64,000 nt of DNA from assembly GCA_951406725.2 (NCBI GenBank), contig OX597815.1, positions 115,196,001-115,260,000 of the forward strand, given 5' to 3'. The position numbers were made by a program, and so were the translations under genes. The notes beneath the pieces are model-generated. The model saw only the letters and a program-made list of their open reading frames with translations, did not search any database and was not told the origin of the DNA. This stretch comes from Octopus vulgaris (taxonomy: Eukaryota). This document shows positions 13,832-54,816 of the stretch, piece by piece. Every line of letters begins with the position of its first letter. The first letter of the stretch is position 1.

Positions 13832-14449
13832 GGTAATAATTTCTGTCGGCTTTTTTTTTTTTCGAGTAGCGTGCGTATTGTGAAAAATTATATGGTTATG
13901 GACAATATGTCCAATTTTCGGCATATTTGGCATTAGAAAATTTTTCGTTTGCCCTTATTTATAAGTTGTTTATAATTTTAACCGTTAAAGGTATTTTTTA
14001 ATATGCTGGCCATTGATAAAATTTTTTTCTTTTGAAAAAAATTTTATCCTGCATTAAATATAAATTTAAGTGTTCACTTCCGGACTCTCTCACTCTGTGA
14101 GAACCTTAGTTCAAATCGCATGTGTCTTGAATGGGCTGGAGTATTTCTATTTTGGATGTATTTGGGGTACTTAATTGTGCTCTTGACTTAGTGTTTTGCT
14201 TCTTCCATGGGTATGAGTAAGTATTTCATTTATTTCTTTGCCACATTTATCACTGATGAAGGGAGGGTTCTTATGAACTAACCCTGAAATCGGTCCGATA
14301 TGGTAATAATGGAATTTTTTAGAAATTTCTGTCGGCTTTTTTTTCGAGTAGTGTGCGTATTGTGAAAAATTATATGGTTATGGACAATATGTCCAATTTT
14401 CGGCATATTTGGCATTAGAAATTTTTTCGTTTGCCCTTATTTATAAGTT
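13832..14449 (+). mobile_element. Non-coding partial-tandem mini-element (Penelope pLTR/retrozyme-like) containing a hammerhead motif
   Basis: Near-identical terminal direct repeats 13832-13967 and 14302-14449 (period about 480 bp). A hammerhead lies just before the second repeat and the 3' end runs into (TA)n. CpGs are retained, suggesting a young insertion. Confidence 0.7.
14238..14306 (+). ncRNA. Type I hammerhead ribozyme motif
   Basis: CTGATGA (14253-59); stem II AGGG..GGTTC-ttat-GAACT..CCCT; GAAA (14286-89); short stem III T-CG-G then GTC (predicted cleavage after 14295); stem I TATC/GATA plus TTGCCA/TGGTAA around a bulge. One A-C mismatch next to the core. Confidence 0.7.
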
Positions 14450-14479
14450 ATATATATATATATATCATATATCATCTTC

Positions 14480-15272: not shown

Positions 15273-15400
15273 TCAATTGAATAAAGAATATAAAATCCTC
15301 TTAAAGGCATGTCAGCATCGAAGTTCACTGGTTTTATTCAGTGTCAGTGAAAAACCAAAGATGTTAGTTTCACCCTGATGGATATGGGTATAAGTTATTT

Positions 15401-15895
15401 AAGTAATAGAAAAAGAAAATAGAGAACCTGACATATAGACATCAATTTATTTGAACATATTCAATTCCGTACAATATCAAATTCTTTGCTCCTACAGCCG
15501 TTTCCATACCCAATTAATTCAATTTGAGGAATTAAATTAAATTAATTGAAATTTTCAAATCAGATATCATTAATTGGGTATTTCTTCAGGGAAAGAATTC
15601 AATAAAAAGAGGAGCTACTTTCAATGTGTTGGTTGACCCTTGACTGACTCAGGGTCAACCAGCACACTGAGTGTAGCTCCTTTTTTATTGAATTTTTTTC
15701 CCTGACGAAATACCCAATTAACGATATTCGATATCAAAATTTCAATTGATTTGATTTAATTTAATTCCTCAAATTGAATTATTTGGTCATGGAAACAGCT
15801 GTATGAGCAAAGAATTTGATATTGTACATAACTGAATATGTTCAAATAAATTGATGTCTATATGTCAGGTTCTCTATTTTCTTTTTCTATTACTT
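15401..15895. mobile_element. About 495-bp palindrome of two head-to-head hammerhead-bearing arms
   Basis: Arms of about 240 bp; the outer ~60 bp are perfect reverse complements; centre near 15645. Plus arm: CTGACGA (15702)...GAAAC-AGCT-GTA (15792-15803). Minus arm: CTGAAGA...GAAAC-GGCT-GTA. Confidence 0.75.
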
Positions 15896-15919
15896 GATAT
15901 TACTTAAATAATATATATA

Positions 15920-27399: not shown

Positions 27400-27955
27400 T
27401 TTTACTTTAGCACAAGGCCAACAATTTTGAGGAAGTCAATTGCATCAACCCAAGTGCTCAACTGGTACTTATTCTATGCACTCCCAGTGCCCAGCAGCGC
27501 TTATTTTATTGATCCCAAAAGGATGAATGACAAAGTCAACTTTGGCAGTATTTGAACTCAAGATTTAAAGATGGACAAAATGCCATTAAACATTTTATCC
27601 ATCTTCACTTTCTGAGTTGAAATGTTGCCAAAGTTGACCTTGTCTTTCATCATTTCAACATCAATAAAATAAGTACCAGTTGAGCATTGAGGTCAATGTA
27701 ATCAATTTATCCATTTCCCTAAAATTACTGGTCTTGAGTAAAAATTTGAAACTATTATTTTAAGGTGGTGAGCTGGCAGAATTGTTAGCACATCAGACAA
27801 AATGCTTAGCACCATTTCTTTTGGCTTTCTTCGAGAGTTCAAATAATGCCAAGGTTATCTTTGCCTTTAGTCCTTTTGGGGTCAATAAAATAAAGCACCA
27901 GCCAATTACTGGAGTAAGCATAACTAACTTACCCTTCTGTTAAAATTAGAAAGAT
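27400..27955. mobile_element. Cluster of SINE family 2 copies in mixed orientation
   Basis: Same motifs as 24027-24690. 27400-27600 is minus; 27605-27755 and 27764-27955 are plus. Confidence 0.7.
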
Positions 27956-28456
27956 TCTTATTATCATTTACAACTAGCATTTTGCAATGCTTAAAAATTT
28001 CTGTATATATTTTGGGGTAATTTAATTAATTAGTTAGTATTTGGCATTCATTATTTAGCATTTATTTATTTACTCAATGTGTGACTGGTAATTTATGTGC
28101 AACTATCCTATTGATAACAAGTTGTTATCCTAATTAAATAAATCTATTTTAAGATATTTTCCCATAGTTACCTGCCTGCAACTGAGACAGTGACCTGCAT
28201 TTCAGACTAAGCTATTTTGAAAAAAAAAAGTGATTTTTCTTTTATTTGTGAAACATAGTAAAGATTGAGACTTTTGTAGACTAAACACATGATACTATGC
28301 AAATGTATTTTATAAATTACTGTAATTGGATCTTGGTTTACTTTAGTGCTGAGACACTTAACTTATCAGGTTCTAACAATAATAATAATGTATATATATA
28401 TACATACATTCTAATAATAATGTATATGATATATCTCTATGCATTTATCTAAATAT

Positions 28457-28501
<45 letters not shown>

Positions 28502-28524
28502 TACATACACACACACACACACAC

Positions 28525-28633
<109 letters not shown>

Positions 28634-28734
28634 CATATATACATATATATATTATAATGGAATAAGTACTATGAAGCATTGTGTAGAATATATTGTATAA
28701 AGGATCATGGGTAAGGCCAAAACAAGTTAAAGTA

Positions 28735-28951
28735 AATGCAAGGCAGATCACAAGAAAACAAGTATGTGAATTAATGTAGACTTACCTTGTATTCAATATT
28801 TCGGGGTTAAGACCCCATTTTCAAGAAATAGACAAATATTGCCAGCAACATTCATCTATTTCTTGAAAATGGGGTCATAACCTGAAACATTGAATAGAAG
28901 GTAAATCTACATTAATTCACATACTTGTTTTCTTGTGATTTACCTTGCATT
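28735..28951. mobile_element. About 217-bp palindrome of two head-to-head arms with a variant hammerhead motif
   Basis: Arms of about 100 bp are near-perfect reverse complements. Right arm: TCTATTTC-TTGAAAA-T-GGGGT-CATA-ACCT-GAAAC-ATT-GAATAGA. The left arm on the minus strand has GGGGT-CTTA-ACCCC-GAAA. Followed by (TA)n. Confidence 0.65.
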
Positions 28952-29768
28952 GATATATATATATATTCAATGATAAAATATAGCAAGTATCAGTATTCTA
29001 ATTAACTTGTAGCCATACCTTAGCTGCTCTTCTTGTTAGTGACTTTATCTTATCTTAAACTGGCACAAAACTTGTTCTCCTTACATCAAGGTTCGACAAG
29101 AACAAAATAAATGAATAAATAAATAAACTAAAAAATGAAGGAATGAATAAATAAATAGATGAATGAATGAATAAATAAATAAATGAATAAAATTAAAAAA
29201 GAAAATTGCTTTCATAAGGAAAGGAAAATAAGAAAAAGTTTGACCTTTCTTTAGCTGTTATTACCTACCCAAACTTACAACAATTCCAATATGCTGTCCT
29301 ACATAAATCTACACATACACACATTGGACAAAATAAAAAGTAGTTTAAACCAATAAATGATTGCCATAAGAAAGAAAGTTTCACTTATGAAATTCTCTGA
29401 CCTGAATACATTGTTTTTCTTTAATTAATTTGTAACATAGAAACATAGAAACCTCTGTTATTACATAATTCTAACATAATCTTTTAATGTATTTTAATTG
29501 ATTTTCTAGTCTTTTTTTTTACATTTACATTTGCATACTTTTTTGCCAAAGTAGGAACATATGAAATTATAATTTTTGCCTTCAGAATTAGTTGTTGAGT
29601 GAAGAGAAGGACCAACTGTAAAAATAAGCTAACATGTTTGTGTGTGAAGCTATAGGAGAAATCAGTAAAGGATGTTGGACACTTCAGTGGCTTTTGCTGA
29701 ATTCTTAAAAGCATGTGAATAGATTGGTGTAGTAGCTTTTCTTTTCCCTTTCTTCTAAATCAGAAGAA

Positions 29769-39494: not shown

Positions 39495-41746
39495 CTGGAT
39501 TGCAAGACAGTGTGTGAGAGAAAATTGTAATGTCATAGGAGAGAAATGTGTCCGCATGGATGATGGTGCACTTGCTTTTAATGATTCGGAAAAGTAAGAG
39601 GTTTGGAGAAGCCATTATGAAAGACTGCTGAACATGGAGAATGAATGGGAGGAGGAGAGCCTGCCAAATGTTGACCCAGTAGAGGGTCAAGCTATCCCAA
39701 AAGACAGCTTCCTTGTAGATAAAGCAATTAAGGGTATGAAGCTAGGAAAAGCCCCCGGTCCATCAGGAATCACTGCTGAGATGCTTAAAACATCTGGTGG
39801 TGTGGGCTATTGCCTAGTCACCCACATTGTAAACCAGGTAGTTCATGATGGAGTCATACCCAATGACTGGCGTAGCAGCACCATAGTCAACTGCTACAAG
39901 GGCAAAGGTGATGCTCTAGATAGAAATAACTACAGGGGTATCAAACTACTGGATCAGGTGATGAAGGTCATGGAGAGGGTCATAGCCCATCTCGCTAGGG
40001 ACAGAGTCTGCTTAGATGAGATGCAGTTTAGTTTTGTGCCGGGTAGAAGCACCACTTATGCCATATTCCTGGTTTGACAACTGCAGGAGAAATACATAGC
40101 TAAAGATAAACCCCTATACTTAGCTTTTGTGGACTAGGAAAAAGCCTTTGACAGGGTCCCCCAATCCCTTATCTTGTGGTCAATGCAGAAACTGGGGATT
40201 GACGAATGGTTAATAAGGGCTGTACATGCTCTATACAGAGAGGCCATTAGTAAGGTTAGGATTGGAAATGAATATAGTGAAGAATCCTGGGTATAAGTAG
40301 GGGTCCACCAAGGCTCAGCTCTCAGTCCCCTTTTATTCATCATAGTCCTCCAGGGTTGTCCCTGAGAGCTCCTCTATGCTGATGACCTAGCCCTCTTAGC
40401 AGAATCCCTACCAGAACTAGAAAAGAAAATTTGGGTGTGGAAGCTAGGTTTAAAATCAAAAGGCCTTAGAGTCAATGTAGCAAAGACCAAAGTTCTAGTA
40501 AGTAGTGAGGTGAACACATCACATACCCACTCAGGTAGGTGGCCCTGCTCGATCTATAGAAAAGGTGTTGGTAGAAACTCCATAAGATGTACTCAGTGTA
40601 AGCTATGGACACATAAGAGGTACAACAACAACAAAGGAAGATTAACCAAGAAGATAGCTTTTGTGTGCGGCAGATGCACAGGGGCAATAAACACACAGAT
40701 GCTCAGAAAACAGATTCCATCACATGCCGGAGGAAACACTAGAAGTAGTTGATAGCTACCGCTACCTAGGTGACCAAGTCTGTAGTGGGGATGGATGTCC
40801 AGAGAGTGTTACCACTAGAACAAGAATAGTCAGGGCAAAGTTCAGAAAGCTTCTACCCCTACTGGTGACTAAGGGCTTCTCATTCAGAGTGAAAGGTAGA
40901 TTGTACGATGCCCGTGTGTGAACTGCCATGCTTCACAGCAGTGAAACATTGGCTGTGACTGTGGAGGAGATTTGTAGGCTCGAAAGAAATGAAGCTAGCA
41001 GGATCTGCTGCATGTGTAATGTCAGTGTGCACACACAACAGAGTGTAAGCGCCCTGAGAGAAATGTTACACATAAGAAGCATAGGATGTGGCGTGCAAGA
41101 GAGACATTTGTGCTGGTATGGTCATGTACTATGGATGGATGAGGAGAGATGTGTGAAGAAGTACTACTCCCAAGCAGTTGAAGGAATCCGGAATAGAGAT
41201 AGACCCAGGAAGACATAGGATGAGGTGGTCAAGCATGACCTTTGAATGTTGGGCCTCACAGAGGCAATGACGAAAGACCGAGACCTCTGGAGATATGCTG
41301 TGACTGCAAAGACCCAGCAAATAAAGAGAGTTCACGGCTGAATCCTACACCAGTTTCACATAACCAGCACCATCCCATTCAAAAGTACATTGGGAAGTAG
41401 GGTAACCTGCTGTGCTTGAGGAGACCTATTGAGTCAAGTATATCAACATCAAAATGAAAATCAAATGGAAATTGTAGCTGTGATACCCGTGCGTTTGGCA
41501 CATAAAAAGCACCATCCGAACATGGCCAATGCCAGTGCCGCTTTGACTGGCTTCTGTGTCAGTGGCACGTAAGAAGTACCAACTACACCCATGGAGTGGT
41601 TGGCGTTAGGAAAGGCATCTAGCTGTAGAAACACTGCCAGATCAGACTGGAGCCTGGTGCAGTCTCCTGGCTTTCCAGACCCCGGTCAAACTGTCCAACC
41701 CATGCTAGCATGGAAAATGGACGTTAAATGATGATGATGATGATGA
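39495..41746 (+). mobile_element. 5'-truncated RTE LINE with disrupted reverse transcriptase
   Basis: GKAPGPSGITAEMLK..KGKGD..NYRGIKLL..AFVD*EKAFDRVP..GVHQGSALSPLLF..LYADDL (40375-86)..YRYLG..WYGHV..RPRKT, then the 3' UTR and (GAT)n. Several stops and frameshifts. Confidence 0.95.
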
Positions 41747-42350: not shown

Positions 42351-43790
42351 ATTGGTTCATCTCATAAATAATGCAGTTTTCTGAACAAAATTATTTTTTC
42401 CTCTAAAATATACTCTCCTTCATTTTCTACAATGCTCTTCCATCTATCTGGTAGACTTGCAAGGTTCCGCTTCCAAAATTCACTTGTCCATCACAAAAAA
42501 TACTCCACCAGTACTGTTCTGACTTCATCTACAGAATTCATATTTTTTCTGTCCAAATGATTTTGAAGACTGCAGAATAAATGATAATCAGATGGGGCAA
42601 TGTCTGGCAAATATGCTGGGTGGGGCATCATTTCCCATTCAAACTGCTCTAGCCTTTTTAATGTCATCCTCTCTGTATGTGGCTGAGCATTATCGTGATG
42701 GAAAAACACCTTTTAGTTTGAAACCAAAGATGGTCATTTTTCTTATAGTGCTAATTTAAGCCACTCGAGCTGCTTACTGTGGATCTTCCATGTTACTGCT
42801 TGGTTTGGGTTTAAATGTTCAATGTGGACTAAACCTTTCATATCCCACTAAACAGATAACAACACCTTATGTGAGTGAAGACCTTCTTTAGCCTGGGGTG
42901 CTAGTGTTCCTCCTTTCCCTACTCACTGTATTCAGCATTTGACATTTTTGTAAAGAACCCATTTCTCATTATCAGTCACTATTTGGTCCAAAAAAGGTTC
43001 ATTCATGAGATGTAACAGCAAAGAAGAGTACATATTAACTCTCTGCATGTGATTAGACTCGGAAAGTTTGTGAGGAATCCATTGACCCAACTTGCTGACT
43101 TTTCCAGTGGCACTCAGTTGTCAATGAATGGTTGAAAGACCAAATCCAAGTTTCTTAGCTAGTTCCTCCACAGTTACAAAGGGATTTTGTTCCCACAAGG
43201 TTTGCAGGACATCTTCATCAAGCTCTACAGATCTTCATGTAAGGTGTTGTTATCTGTTTGGTGGGATATGAAAGGTTTAATCCACTTTGAACATTTAAAC
43301 TCAAAACAAACAATAACAAAGGAGATCTACTGCGAGCAGCTTAAGCAGCTTAAGTCAGAACTATAAGAAAAATAACCATCTTTGGTTTCAAAATGAAAGG
43401 TGTTCTTCCATCAGGATAATGCTTGGCCCCTTACAGCGAGGATGACATTCAAAAGGCTGGAGCAGTTTGAATGAGAAACAATACTCTACCCACCATATTC
43501 GCCGGGCATTGCCTCATCTGATTATCATTTATTCAGAAGTCTTCAAAATCATTTGGATGGAAAAAATATGAATTCTGTAGATGTGGTCAGAACAGTACTG
43601 GAGGAGTATTTTCCATCACGAACAAGTGAATTTTGGAAGAGGGGCCTTGCAAGTCTACCAGATAGATGGAAGAGCATTGTAGAAAATGAAGGAGAGTATA
43701 TAATTTAGATGAAAAAGAACTTTATTCATCTTAATTTTGAAAAATAAAAGAAGTATTTGAAAACCACATTATTTATAGGATGACTCAATA
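42351..43790. mobile_element. Rearranged mariner made of two inverted 3' halves
   Basis: Termini ATTGGTTCATCTCATAAATAATGCAGTTT / AAACCACATTATTTATAGGATGACTCAAT. The minus-strand transposase at 42.4-43.24k reads ..FHHDNAQPH..HPAYLPDIAPSDYHLF... The plus-strand copy at 43240-43700 reads KVLLSVWWDMKG..HQDNA.P..PPYSPGIASSDYHLFRSL. Confidence 0.85.
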
Positions 43791-46419: not shown

Positions 46420-47315
46420 TAAGAGGGTACCCAAAAGAAACCCAAATTTTACAATATTATTTAATTCACTCAGTTTTACATTTATCCTTTTATTGCCTTC
46501 AAAGTATCCTCCATGTGAAGCACTGCATTGGTCCAGGTACATTTTCCACTGTTCGAAGCAGTGCTGGAACTCTTGTGAAGTGATGCCTTTTAAAGCCTTT
46601 GTCATTTTTTCTTCACCTCTTCCACATCTGCAAATTCCATAGCACCAGCTTTCATCACCAGTGGTGACCTTCAAGGAAAGGTCCAGATCAACTTCCAACT
46701 GTTCTTTTAGTTCATGACATATACTCAGTCATGACTGCTTTTGGGCTTCCATGAGCAAGCAATGAACAAATTTTGCTATAACTCTTTTCATTTGCAATTC
46801 CTCATTCAAAATTCATTGGCAGGAGCACCAGGACACATCAATCATATCAAGTTTGTCAATTGTTTGGTGACGATCCTCCAAGATCAATTCATGAATTTTC
46901 ATGTTTTCACATGTTCAGGAGGTCAATGGTTGTCCTGAACAAGGTTGGTCTTCAAGCAACAAGTGACCATTCCTGAAACATGGAAACCACTTGTAAACTT
47001 GTGTTTTTCTCATGGTAGCATCCTTGTAAGCAGTTTGAAGTATGACAACTGTTTTGGCAGCGGTTTTCCCCAGCAGAAAACAGAATTTCATAGAAGCACA
47101 CTGTCTAGTCATTTCAGCCATCGCAAAAATTGGCAAATGGGGGAGAAGCACAGCAAAACAAAGATGCACCGTGTGACAGTAAACTTAACCAGATGTCGCT
47201 GGTTGGTGCACTGATGCCTGAGGGACACATCAAGTGGCTTCTAGTGGCAGAAGCGTGAACTACAATGGGTTTGTTCCACAGAGAACATTTCCAATTACTA
47301 TTGGGTAGCTCCTCA
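46420..47315 (-). mobile_element. Internally deleted mariner (irritans/Hsmar2-like)
   Basis: ORF 46915-47169 MKFCFLLGKTAAKTVVILQTAYKDATMRKTQVYKWF..FRNG...LEDQPCSGQP is a mariner HTH. ORF 46384-46698 joins TGDESWCY directly to the C-terminal EFQHCFEQWK. TIRs gagggtacccaaaag / ctattgggtagctcctc. Confidence 0.85.
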
Positions 47316-52114: not shown

Positions 52115-52830
52115 AGTTTTATTTTTTTTATAGCGTGCTTTCACTTCACTACCGAGCGCAGCTCTGTGTGCCTTGGGTATGTGCTGTGATTTGTTGTGAT
52201 GCTCTGATGGTTATTGTATGGAAAGTGTTCTGCGTAGGATGTGTGCAGTGCCTAGTAGTGCAATTTTCTGTATGTTATATGTGTTTGTAAGTCCTGGTGT
52301 TTTTGTTATGTATTTGTCTGAATATTTTTTATCATGCCTAATGCACCTACTATGATAGGAATTGTTTCTGTTTTCAGATTCCACATTCTAGTTACCTCTA
52401 TTTCCAGGTCTTTGTATTTTGAGAGCTTCTCCATTTCTTTTAGAGACACGTTGTCATCAGCCAGTATTGATACATCAATTAGAAAGCATTTTTTTCTTCA
52501 TGGTCTCTGACAACTATATCTGGTCTGTTGGCCTTAATTTCTCTATCTGTGTGTATCGGCATATCCCAGAGTATGGTTGCTTTCTCGTTTTCTGTGACCT
52601 TTTCTGGTGTGTGCCTATACCATCTTTTTTCTGTTGTTATTCCATAATGTTGGCATAGCTTCCAATGTATGTAGGTTCCAACTCTGTCATGTCTGTGAAT
52701 ATATTCCTTCTTAGCCAGGACTGGGCAGCTAGAGATAATATGATTTATTGTTTCTTGTCCATCTCCACATATTCTGCAGTTACTTGTAATATTTCTTTTC
52801 ATTACATGTTTTTAGTAATTTCTGGTGGGG
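52115..52830 (-). mobile_element. R4/Dong-clade non-LTR retrotransposon 3' fragment (CCHC knuckle + restriction-like endonuclease), flanked by (TAA)n; shorter copy at 53540-53730
   Basis: ORF 52479-52802: CRICGDGQETINHIISSC..YIHRHDRV..ILWDMPIHTDREIKANRPDIVV, then ..YKDLEIEV..W..QKIALLGTAHILR.. The CCHC + RHD + PD..D architecture is that of RLE-type LINEs. Confidence 0.9.
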
Positions 52831-53125: not shown

Positions 53126-53467
53126 TAGTGTTGTTTTGTTGTTGTATTATTATTATATAATTGTTCAACATTTGGCCGTTTGAGGCAAATTTCTTCATCA
53201 TCTGCTACACCTTCATGTTCCTGGGGGTGTGTGCAGCATTGTGTGTTCTCTTCTGTTGTTGGGAGTGTGCAAACCCTTCCCAGTATTGTATTGCATTAGT
53301 TTTTTTCTTTCTTGAGGTGTGGTGCAGTCTTTTGTTGTATTACTGCTTAAATTGTGTGTTGAATGTCTAATGCATTAGTTATCTAGCTTGCTGGTGGAAG
53401 TCTGAAGAGGCGGTACCATTGGCCAATGAGGTAAATCCGAGGCATGGTTATTGCTAGTTGAAAATTA

Positions 53468-53532
<65 letters not shown>

Positions 53533-54816
53533 TAGTCTTATTTTTATTAAGTGTGTTCACTGCACTACTGAGTGCAGCTCTGTGTGTCTTGGGTATGTGC
53601 TGTGGTTTGTTTTGGTGCTGTTATTTTCACTATATTTAAAGTTTTTACGTAGGGTGTATGTAGTGCCTAACAGTGAGATTTTCTGTATGTTATATATATT
53701 CAGAAGTTCTGGTGCTTTGGTTATGTATTTATATTATCATTATTATTAATATTTAAGGTTGTGAGCTGGCAGAATTGTTTGCATGCTGGGCAAAATGTTT
53801 AGCAGTATTTTGTCTGTCTTTACATTTTGAGTTCAAATTCCTCCATGGTCGACTTTGCCTTTCTTCCAATGGGAGTGTTCGATAAAATAAGTACTAGTAC
53901 TGGAGTCGATGTAAACAACTTCCTCCTCCATTCTAACTCTGCTGGACCTGTGCCAAAATCTCAAAACCATTATTATTATTATATCCATTTTACTTCTCAG
54001 AGCTCTTGATTTCACTTGCTTTAGTTATCCAAATAATCTAAATAATTTCCCTAAAAGTTTAGTCATACATTAACTACTTCTGACATTCCTTCACACATTT
54101 TTCTCCTCTTAATCTCCAATATTTTTCTGTTTATCAACTGTTTCCTCTTCACAAGTTTGTAGCCTTGTACCTATTAATTTCTCTCACAAGCCTTGGGCAA
54201 CCTAAGACAATTGTATCTGCCACTTGCCGAAGATGCTATGCAGTGGAGCTGAACTCAGAATTTCATGATTGCGAAGCTTCAGTTGGTACAATTTGTTTAT
54301 GTATGTTTGTGTGTATGTTATGCATGTGTGTGCGTGCACATGTGTGTGTGTGTGTGTATGTTATGCATGTGTGTGTGAGTAACCAGAGCTGCTGGAAGGC
54401 ATCTTACATCTTTAATCCTGTATGTACAATTCATGAGACAGGACTACAACAAAGCCCTTGTTAACCTCCTTTCTTAAACTATTACAGGCCAACTCCAATT
54501 GCCAAAGTGTGTTTTCAGCCAGAAGCAGTGTCCTTCATCTTGACACCAGCAAAGAAAAAGAAAAAAAGGCAAAAGCAAAAACTGCATGCAATATACATTT
54601 ATGATGAATAGTATCTCACATGTACCTGTTGTGTCATCTTCTTTAGAGCTGAAAATGCTGTAAAATCAAGAATTTTGGGGGTGGGTAGTGTGGAGCATAT
54701 CTAATTAGAGGGTTACATTTTCAAACTCTTCCGCTTTACATTAAGACATAAACTTTATATAAACTGTACTTGAGCTTGATGCTACTCATTCATTTCCCCT
54801 TTAGAGAATGACATAG

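Follow-up and report, generated by a model that had tools for sequence, protein, structure and literature searches.

The 64,000 nucleotides of Octopus vulgaris DNA analysed here, referred to as the window (contig OX597815.1, positions 115,196,001 to 115,260,000), contain at 28735-28951 an outward-facing palindrome in which each arm carries a motif resembling the core of the hammerhead ribozyme, with U3-A8 in place of the canonical C3-G8 pair. The question raised by this locus is whether two such motifs, pointing away from each other, constitute a paired device, or whether they were brought there together by the same event. The analysis presented here indicates that the palindrome is an insertion scar, not a paired device. 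We are confident, well beyond an even balance, that it represents a dispersed high-copy repeat, here in decayed form and accompanied by a shorter copy in inverted orientation, both having entered a TA microsatellite. The repeat is likely a pseudo-LTR, the 3' end of a Penelope-like retroelement (PLE) or of a non-autonomous derivative, truncated on its 5' side.

By blastn, the inverted repeat comprises 28735-28843 and 28845-28951 at 89% identity. Alignment of the arms gave 107 pairs with 10 mismatches and 2 gaps, at a score of 164 against a maximum of 12 among 500 shuffles, which confirms the outward-facing palindrome of the original prediction. Its extent had been drawn ~80 bp too short, since 28653-28734 belong to the left arm as well. 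We place the left arm at 28688..28843 on the minus strand, as the 5'-truncated 3' end of the repeat with its main 3' end at 28688, followed by an optional 3' tail of ~31-35 bp (28653..28687, minus strand), which is found on the left arm only and whose outer end (~28653-28657) was set from the point where the microsatellite stops in the window (~28652-28656). That microsatellite, a (TA)n/(CA)n tract at 28390..28652 defined by the sequence and by the loose ends of the family, adjoins the 3' end of the element and is likely the insertion target. The right arm (28845..28951, plus strand) is an inverted copy of 107 bp without the tail; it stops 47 bp before the main 3' end and is followed in the sequence by a short (AT)n at 28952..28966. 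The arms are therefore unequal, ~190 bp on the left against 107 bp on the right, and meet as two 5'-truncated ends in a head-to-head junction at 28843..28845, with 28844 as the one unmatched base. They have diverged by ~10%, with CpG-type decay, and because both carry the same two minority letters (28830/28857 and 28762/28924), they were likely copied twice from one template. Within the 64-kb window, neither a further copy of the arm nor a partial tandem of its family was found, and exact arm motifs gave 0 matches in metagenome contigs and 0 in viral contigs. Eight exact matches in prokaryote genomes, none extending beyond 21 bases, were taken as chance. Rfam models returned only generic microRNA hairpins over the palindrome, far under their cut-offs.

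The sequence of the left arm and its conservation in the family define a minimal type I hammerhead motif at 28792..28827 on the minus strand. Stem I consists of 3 bp, UUC/GAA (28827-28825 with 28794-28792); U3 lies at 28824 and A8 at 28819, and an extra U at 28817, absent from the original prediction, separates A9 from G10.1. Stem II (28816-28812 with 28807-28803) is followed by GAAA at 28802-28799, then by a palindromic AUAU at 28799-28796 and a U, forming the NUH site, with the predicted cut between 28795 and 28794. A second, decayed motif was recognized in the right arm (28860..28894, plus strand) from the sequence and the majority letters of the family, with U3 at 28863 and A8 at 28868. 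Here stem II is damaged by the loss of one C and a C>T change, and the stem III palindrome, which together with the following U is the family majority, is interrupted by C28888; the majority letters at 28883 and 28888, as well as an insertion behind 28883, bear on this decay.

Several elements of the original prediction are borne out by these arms: the UUGAAAA core with U3-A8 for C3-G8 is seen in both (TTGAAAA at 28824 on the minus strand and at 28863 on the plus strand), and the GGGGT-CTTA-ACCCC stem II is perfect in the left arm, as had been claimed. The single ribozyme that was described is, however, a composite. GAAA follows stem II in both arms, but GAAAC, as proposed, occurs only in the right arm, the left reading GAAAT; GAATAGA also belongs to the right arm, where the left has GAATACA, and the perfect stem II comes from the left. 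The proposed 7-bp stem I requires T28857 and G28897, whereas the family majority at these positions is A and C; stem I of the family is therefore 3 bp, a length inside the published range for PLE-type minimal hammerheads.

Descriptors composed after the motif had been seen gave the following frequencies: the left arm was among 3 window sites matching a descriptor made up of core, stem II, GAAA, NUH and stem I, for which 100 shuffles averaged 0.07 sites each; a plain U3-A8 pattern matched once where 0.03 matches were expected, and 3 of 100 shuffles gave 1. The Rfam hammerhead models were silent, both at the palindrome (E<=10) and elsewhere in the window (E<=5), in keeping with the expectation that standard CUGANGA-type searches would miss the motif. 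Folding predictions for the left arm gave pair probabilities of 0.85-1.0 for the 5 bp of helix II, including G10.1-C11.1, and weak ones of 0.24-0.35 for stem I, and taken alone the ribozyme stretch has no folding advantage over shuffles (z -0.62 and -0.72). Judged by its sequence, the left arm holds a hammerhead-like motif of the minimal type I class with U3-A8, and the family conserves it.

The family itself was examined in public sequencing runs. A search listed 24 runs, 20 of them with part of the stretch and none of them RNA, which has no bearing on expression; 4 were analysed, one from each of four organism labels. In these, 1,357, 1,616, 1,142 and 1,224 contigs were placed on 28660-28960, with pieces beginning at 28688, and the summed depth, which is no copy number, was 10^4-10^5 on the left arm in all four runs and 0-343 on the right flank, coverage being absent at 28990-29100 in every run. 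The contig counts and the contrast in depth between arm and right flank indicate that the repeat is dispersed and abundant. Among the variants listed, none of at least 5% falls in the core or helix II of the left arm (28818-28824 and 28799-28807) in any of the four runs, except at the loop base 28810, from which we conclude that U3 and A8 characterize the family. Variants at 5-70% among those listed affect 0 of 39 core positions and 12 of 117 other arm positions (Fisher p=0.038), a weak sign that polymorphic sites may avoid the core through constraint. Position 28888 is mostly T across the family, which reads GAAAUAUU, still self-complementary, and not GAAACGUU; the majority found, GAAATATT, departs from the consensus that had been expected, GAAACGTT. 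The copies do keep TTGA.AA and GAAA, as anticipated, among the variants listed for the four runs. The covariation that was to accompany them in stem II was not seen among copies, where with no variation listed in helix II there is nothing to covary; likewise, the change from C3-G8 to U3-A8 is a covariation against the canonical core and not among family copies.

The contigs also define the ends of the repeat. Loose ends at 28688 consist of (TA)n in 14-44 contigs per run, and 60-79 contigs per run go beyond 28660; the repeat has two alternative 3' termini next to (TA)n, separated by ~31-35 bp. Beyond the centre of the palindrome the family continues as GT-rich, non-palindromic sequence in 10-24 contigs per run. 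This upstream continuation is heterogeneous (agreement 0.47-0.69) and, given this and its GT-richness, a non-coding parent is conceivable. The loose ends that follow 28951 read as the left-arm extension in reverse complement. Among the 15 joints listed (44 more exist), 9 lead from the left arm into the right, never at the same place twice, 4 switch strand with ambiguous orientation, and 2 are internal skips within an arm; the letters between some joints are the upstream continuation of the family. Other copies thus invert at different breakpoints.

These features recall the PLEs, for which an inverted 5'-truncated copy, usually head-to-head, a one-sided tail of 30-40 bp and microsatellite targets have been described (PMC8557442, PMC3846280), the tail being tied to two start sites of the reverse transcriptase (PMC11167929). 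The octopus family shares with the EN-containing PLEs the head-to-head inversion with variable breakpoints, the optional one-sided tail, 5' truncation, an AT-rich target, here (TA)n on both flanks, and a hammerhead 100-170 nt from the 3' end (PMC8557442, PMC3846280, PMC11167929); it differs in that neither a PLE ORF nor a partial tandem of the family was seen in the window. From these likenesses we infer a PLE parentage. The head-to-head layout had been taken to suggest a recurring mechanism, and this is supported in the sense that it is the standard Penelope insertion pattern, and as such not novel. None of the 113 ORFs in the window matches GIY-YIG, and the copy at the palindrome is itself too short; the only RVT_1 match in the window, a weak one at 40.4 kb, lies 11 kb away.

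A PLE-type origin would proceed as follows. The GIY-YIG nuclease of the parent element would nick (TA)n DNA, and its reverse transcriptase would start at either of two sites ~31-35 nt apart, yielding ends with or without the tail, and halt after ~190 nt. Fold-back or a template switch would then send the enzyme back over that stretch in reverse, producing the head-to-head arms. In the parent RNA, the U3-A8 minimal hammerhead would cut weakly, either as a dimer held together by the self-complementary AUAU or with the assistance of a protein. The 47-bp shortfall of the right arm is not predicted by the Penelope model.

A near-symmetric palindrome with AT repeats on each flank, in a window rich in other foldback repeats, could also be a foldback or MITE-type DNA transposon with long terminal inverted repeats and TA insertion, its hammerhead look being due to chance, and the motif region indeed shows no unusual folding energy. 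Such an element does not account for the unequal arms, the variable centre or the extension of the family past that centre, nor for two alternative ends and head-to-head joints at differing places in 9 of the 15 joints listed, and the motif is expected by chance only 0.03-0.07 times per window. We consider this origin, largely refuted already by the variable junctions, to be very improbable.

Another source to be weighed is the 3' end of a SINE or LINE that is not a PLE, with a 5' inversion generated by twin priming and a hammerhead-like motif of its own. Truncation at the 5' end and inversion occur in LINEs too, and remnants of both kinds of element are present in the window. Twin priming, however, inverts a different, more 5' segment and does not duplicate the 3' end. 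The octopus repeat moreover has neither poly(A) nor a short-repeat tail of its own, and the optional ~33-bp tail combined with a minimal hammerhead is a set of PLE traits. We rate this source highly unlikely.

With the PLE-type origin retained, there is the matter of what the two motifs could do at this locus. Folding predictions for read-through RNA, whichever the strand, give a single hairpin of ~100 bp, at -145 to -152 kcal/mol, in which the pairing probability of stem II is 0.0. With this predicted fold, and with one motif on each strand, the hammerheads at 28735-28951 are best regarded as passengers. That the outward pair is a functional device, in which two ribozymes trim divergent transcripts, is exceedingly unlikely: the 7-bp stem I in the right arm and the recurrence of the layout at 15.4 kb would favour it, but that long stem I is made of minority letters, the arms show ~10% divergence with CpG-type decay, stems II and III of the right arm are damaged, stem II is unpaired in the predicted read-through RNA, and minimal-hammerhead monomers, as single motifs, were without cleavage in the experiments that PMC4209133 describes for them.

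Neither the motif nor its arrangement is new, since U3-A8 minimal hammerheads and their opposite-strand pairs were already published in 2014 (PMC4209133). The account of minimal motifs given there includes ~1,300 U3-A8 matches in Schistosoma mansoni, a UUGAAAA core whose helix I has 3 bp in family 4 of S. mansoni, a Cercyon PLE serving as the example, and pairs on opposite strands 100-700 bp apart (PMC4209133). PLE hammerheads are also described as having an extra base between 9 and 10.1, a G10.1-C11.1 pair and a palindromic 15.2-16.2, and GAAA-U-A-U-U is found in the hammerheads of C. remanei and Latimeria (PMC4209133). Each feature of the octopus motif has its counterpart in that account. 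Cercyon of S. mansoni (Cervera & de la Pena 2014) resembles the octopus palindrome in its core, extra base, G10.1-C11.1 pair, palindrome and 3-bp helix I, and its hammerheads are mostly solitary with some opposite-strand pairs, as in the octopus family. The octopus motif is set apart from it by unrelated flanks, a 5-bp stem II with a 4-nt loop, AUAU where Cercyon has ACGU, the lack of a linked ORF, and a long hairpin with a splice-donor-like site that follows the motif. In PAc of Anolis, the AUG that starts the ORF lies near stem II; A9-U-G10.1 of the octopus motif is also an AUG, but with the majority loop it reaches a stop after three codons. A natural covariation from C3-G8 to U3-A8, said to be active in vitro, was noted earlier (Perreault et al. 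2011, PMC3088659); it is the same U3-A8 as in the palindrome, and the passage concerned gives no rate for a minimal motif free of tertiary contacts.

The animal non-LTR retrozymes (PMC7229834; bioRxiv 10.64898/2026.07.22.740005) are similar to the octopus repeat in being non-coding, type I, PLE-related and of high copy number. They form head-to-tail tandems with mostly canonical hammerheads, whereas the palindrome is an inverted pair of a minimal motif, and a retrozyme was rejected because the copy is inverted and the window holds no tandem of it. Among cephalopods, many Penelope families have been listed for Octopus vulgaris, with hammerheads unmentioned in that listing (PMC13282606), and Rfam hammerheads have been counted in the giant squid (PMC6962438). 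In our literature search no paper on the repeat family of the palindrome was found; a name for it may already exist in Dfam or Repbase.

A parallel to the octopus family was provided by metagenome contigs. A degenerate U3-A8 pattern identified 49 loci, of which 12 were dropped as duplicate contexts to leave 37 distinct ones; a further 5 distinct contexts (7 loci), gene-dense and bacterial-looking, were then set aside, leaving 32 loci. Most of these represent one repeat, unrelated to the palindrome and without homology to its arm beyond the pattern, in non-coding DNA; one locus adjoins an ecdysteroid-kinase-like ORF, and none of the 92 ORFs in the loci is a GIY-YIG or PLE ORF. Nearly half of the loci (15/32) are head-to-head, with cores 7-77 bases apart where measurable. 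A tail of ~30 bp is found on exactly one arm in 14 of these 15 and on both in none, compared with a control rate of 1.8%. Because U3.G8 predominates among the partner cores (4 of the 6 that match in full), this family supports the architecture and not the A8 state, and its A8 matches may be decay selected by the search pattern. An abundant minimal-hammerhead repeat whose core is mostly U3.G8, with head-to-head pairs and the one-sided tail of ~30 bp, was noted in host-like DNA at the metagenome loci L003, L005, L006, L010, L017, L020, L022-L024, L026, L027, L029, L044, L048 and L049; it is possible that this repeat represents an intermediate between C3-G8 and U3-A8.

The window as a whole is AT-rich (GC 0.28-0.44) and microsatellite-rich, with LINE and mariner remnants scattered through it and no long ORFs. 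At 15391-15906 there is a second head-to-head palindrome (88%). Its cores are C3-G8 (CUGACGA and CUGAAGA), its stem III is palindromic, and its stem II, rich in AU, reaches the unusual length of ~80 nt; it is likely another PLE-type inverted end. A canonical-looking type I hammerhead with a 6-bp stem I and a 5-bp stem III (z -3.1), missed by Rfam, is located at 14253 on the plus strand between direct copies at 13838-13974 and 14324-14456, the second of which ends in (TA)n; the whole, 13838-14456, looks like a partial tandem resembling a PLE pseudo-LTR or a retrozyme. The match at 53396-53534 to U4 snRNA (50 bits against an Rfam cut-off of 46), which runs into a (TTA)n tract, probably marks a repeat junction that holds a U4 pseudogene or fragment. 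Other transposon-related features are an inverted pair at 42382-42869 and 43240-43728 (~490 bp, 86%, 370 bp apart) that by eye has the look of a mariner-derived foldback, a Mos1-type HTH above cut-off at 46918-47184 (minus strand), weak remnants of RVT_1 at 40366-40749 (plus strand) and zf-RVT at 52482-52811 (minus strand), and a family of short foldback repeats, with members at 27500-27673 and some ten related places from 24.0 to 53.9 kb.

Directly 3' of the cut site in the left arm, folding and family variants point to a predicted hairpin at 28734..28794 on the minus strand (-15.1 kcal/mol, z -3.14; z -4.00 for the copy in the right arm). Within its ~16 bp, the 3' strand of stem I would be paired, as would a site like the consensus 5' splice donor, AAG/GTAAGT, at 28780..28788 on the minus strand. 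Among the variants listed, those at 28744, 28746, 28790 and 28905, all one-sided, keep or restore the outer stem, and a minor variant at 28750 breaks one inner pair, these effects having been read by hand from the majority letters. The donor-like site is one of 2 matches in the window, where 2.34 are expected by chance; its chance occurrence in a 190-base arm is ~0.35%, for a site that was noticed post hoc. It is retained by the family majority letters, and in the metagenome family GGTAAGG follows the cut site in 4 of 16 partner arms, a weak echo seen by eye.

One can imagine from these predictions that the hairpin acts as an RNA switch, which would mask the 3' strand of stem I together with the splice donor and keep the RNA uncut and unspliced until the protein of the element opened it; as reverse transcription would start at the two 3' ends, downstream and inside the would-be intron, only unspliced RNA would be copied. 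We regard this as very doubtful, because an inverted duplication of long standing is enough to account for the hairpin, with no function required. If true, the switch would explain the retention of introns by Penelope elements, the reason for which is stated as unknown (PMC8557442). Only a demonstration that the hairpin couples cleavage with splicing would give the palindrome greater weight, given that this retention is unexplained (PMC8557442) and the role of the PLE hammerhead, which is protein-assisted and dispensable in vitro, is open (PMC11167929). As it stands, the palindrome adds one more host family to the known pattern of U3-A8 minimal hammerheads. Such motifs are missed by Rfam and CUGANGA scans, and palindromes like the one at 28735-28951 are the scars of insertion.
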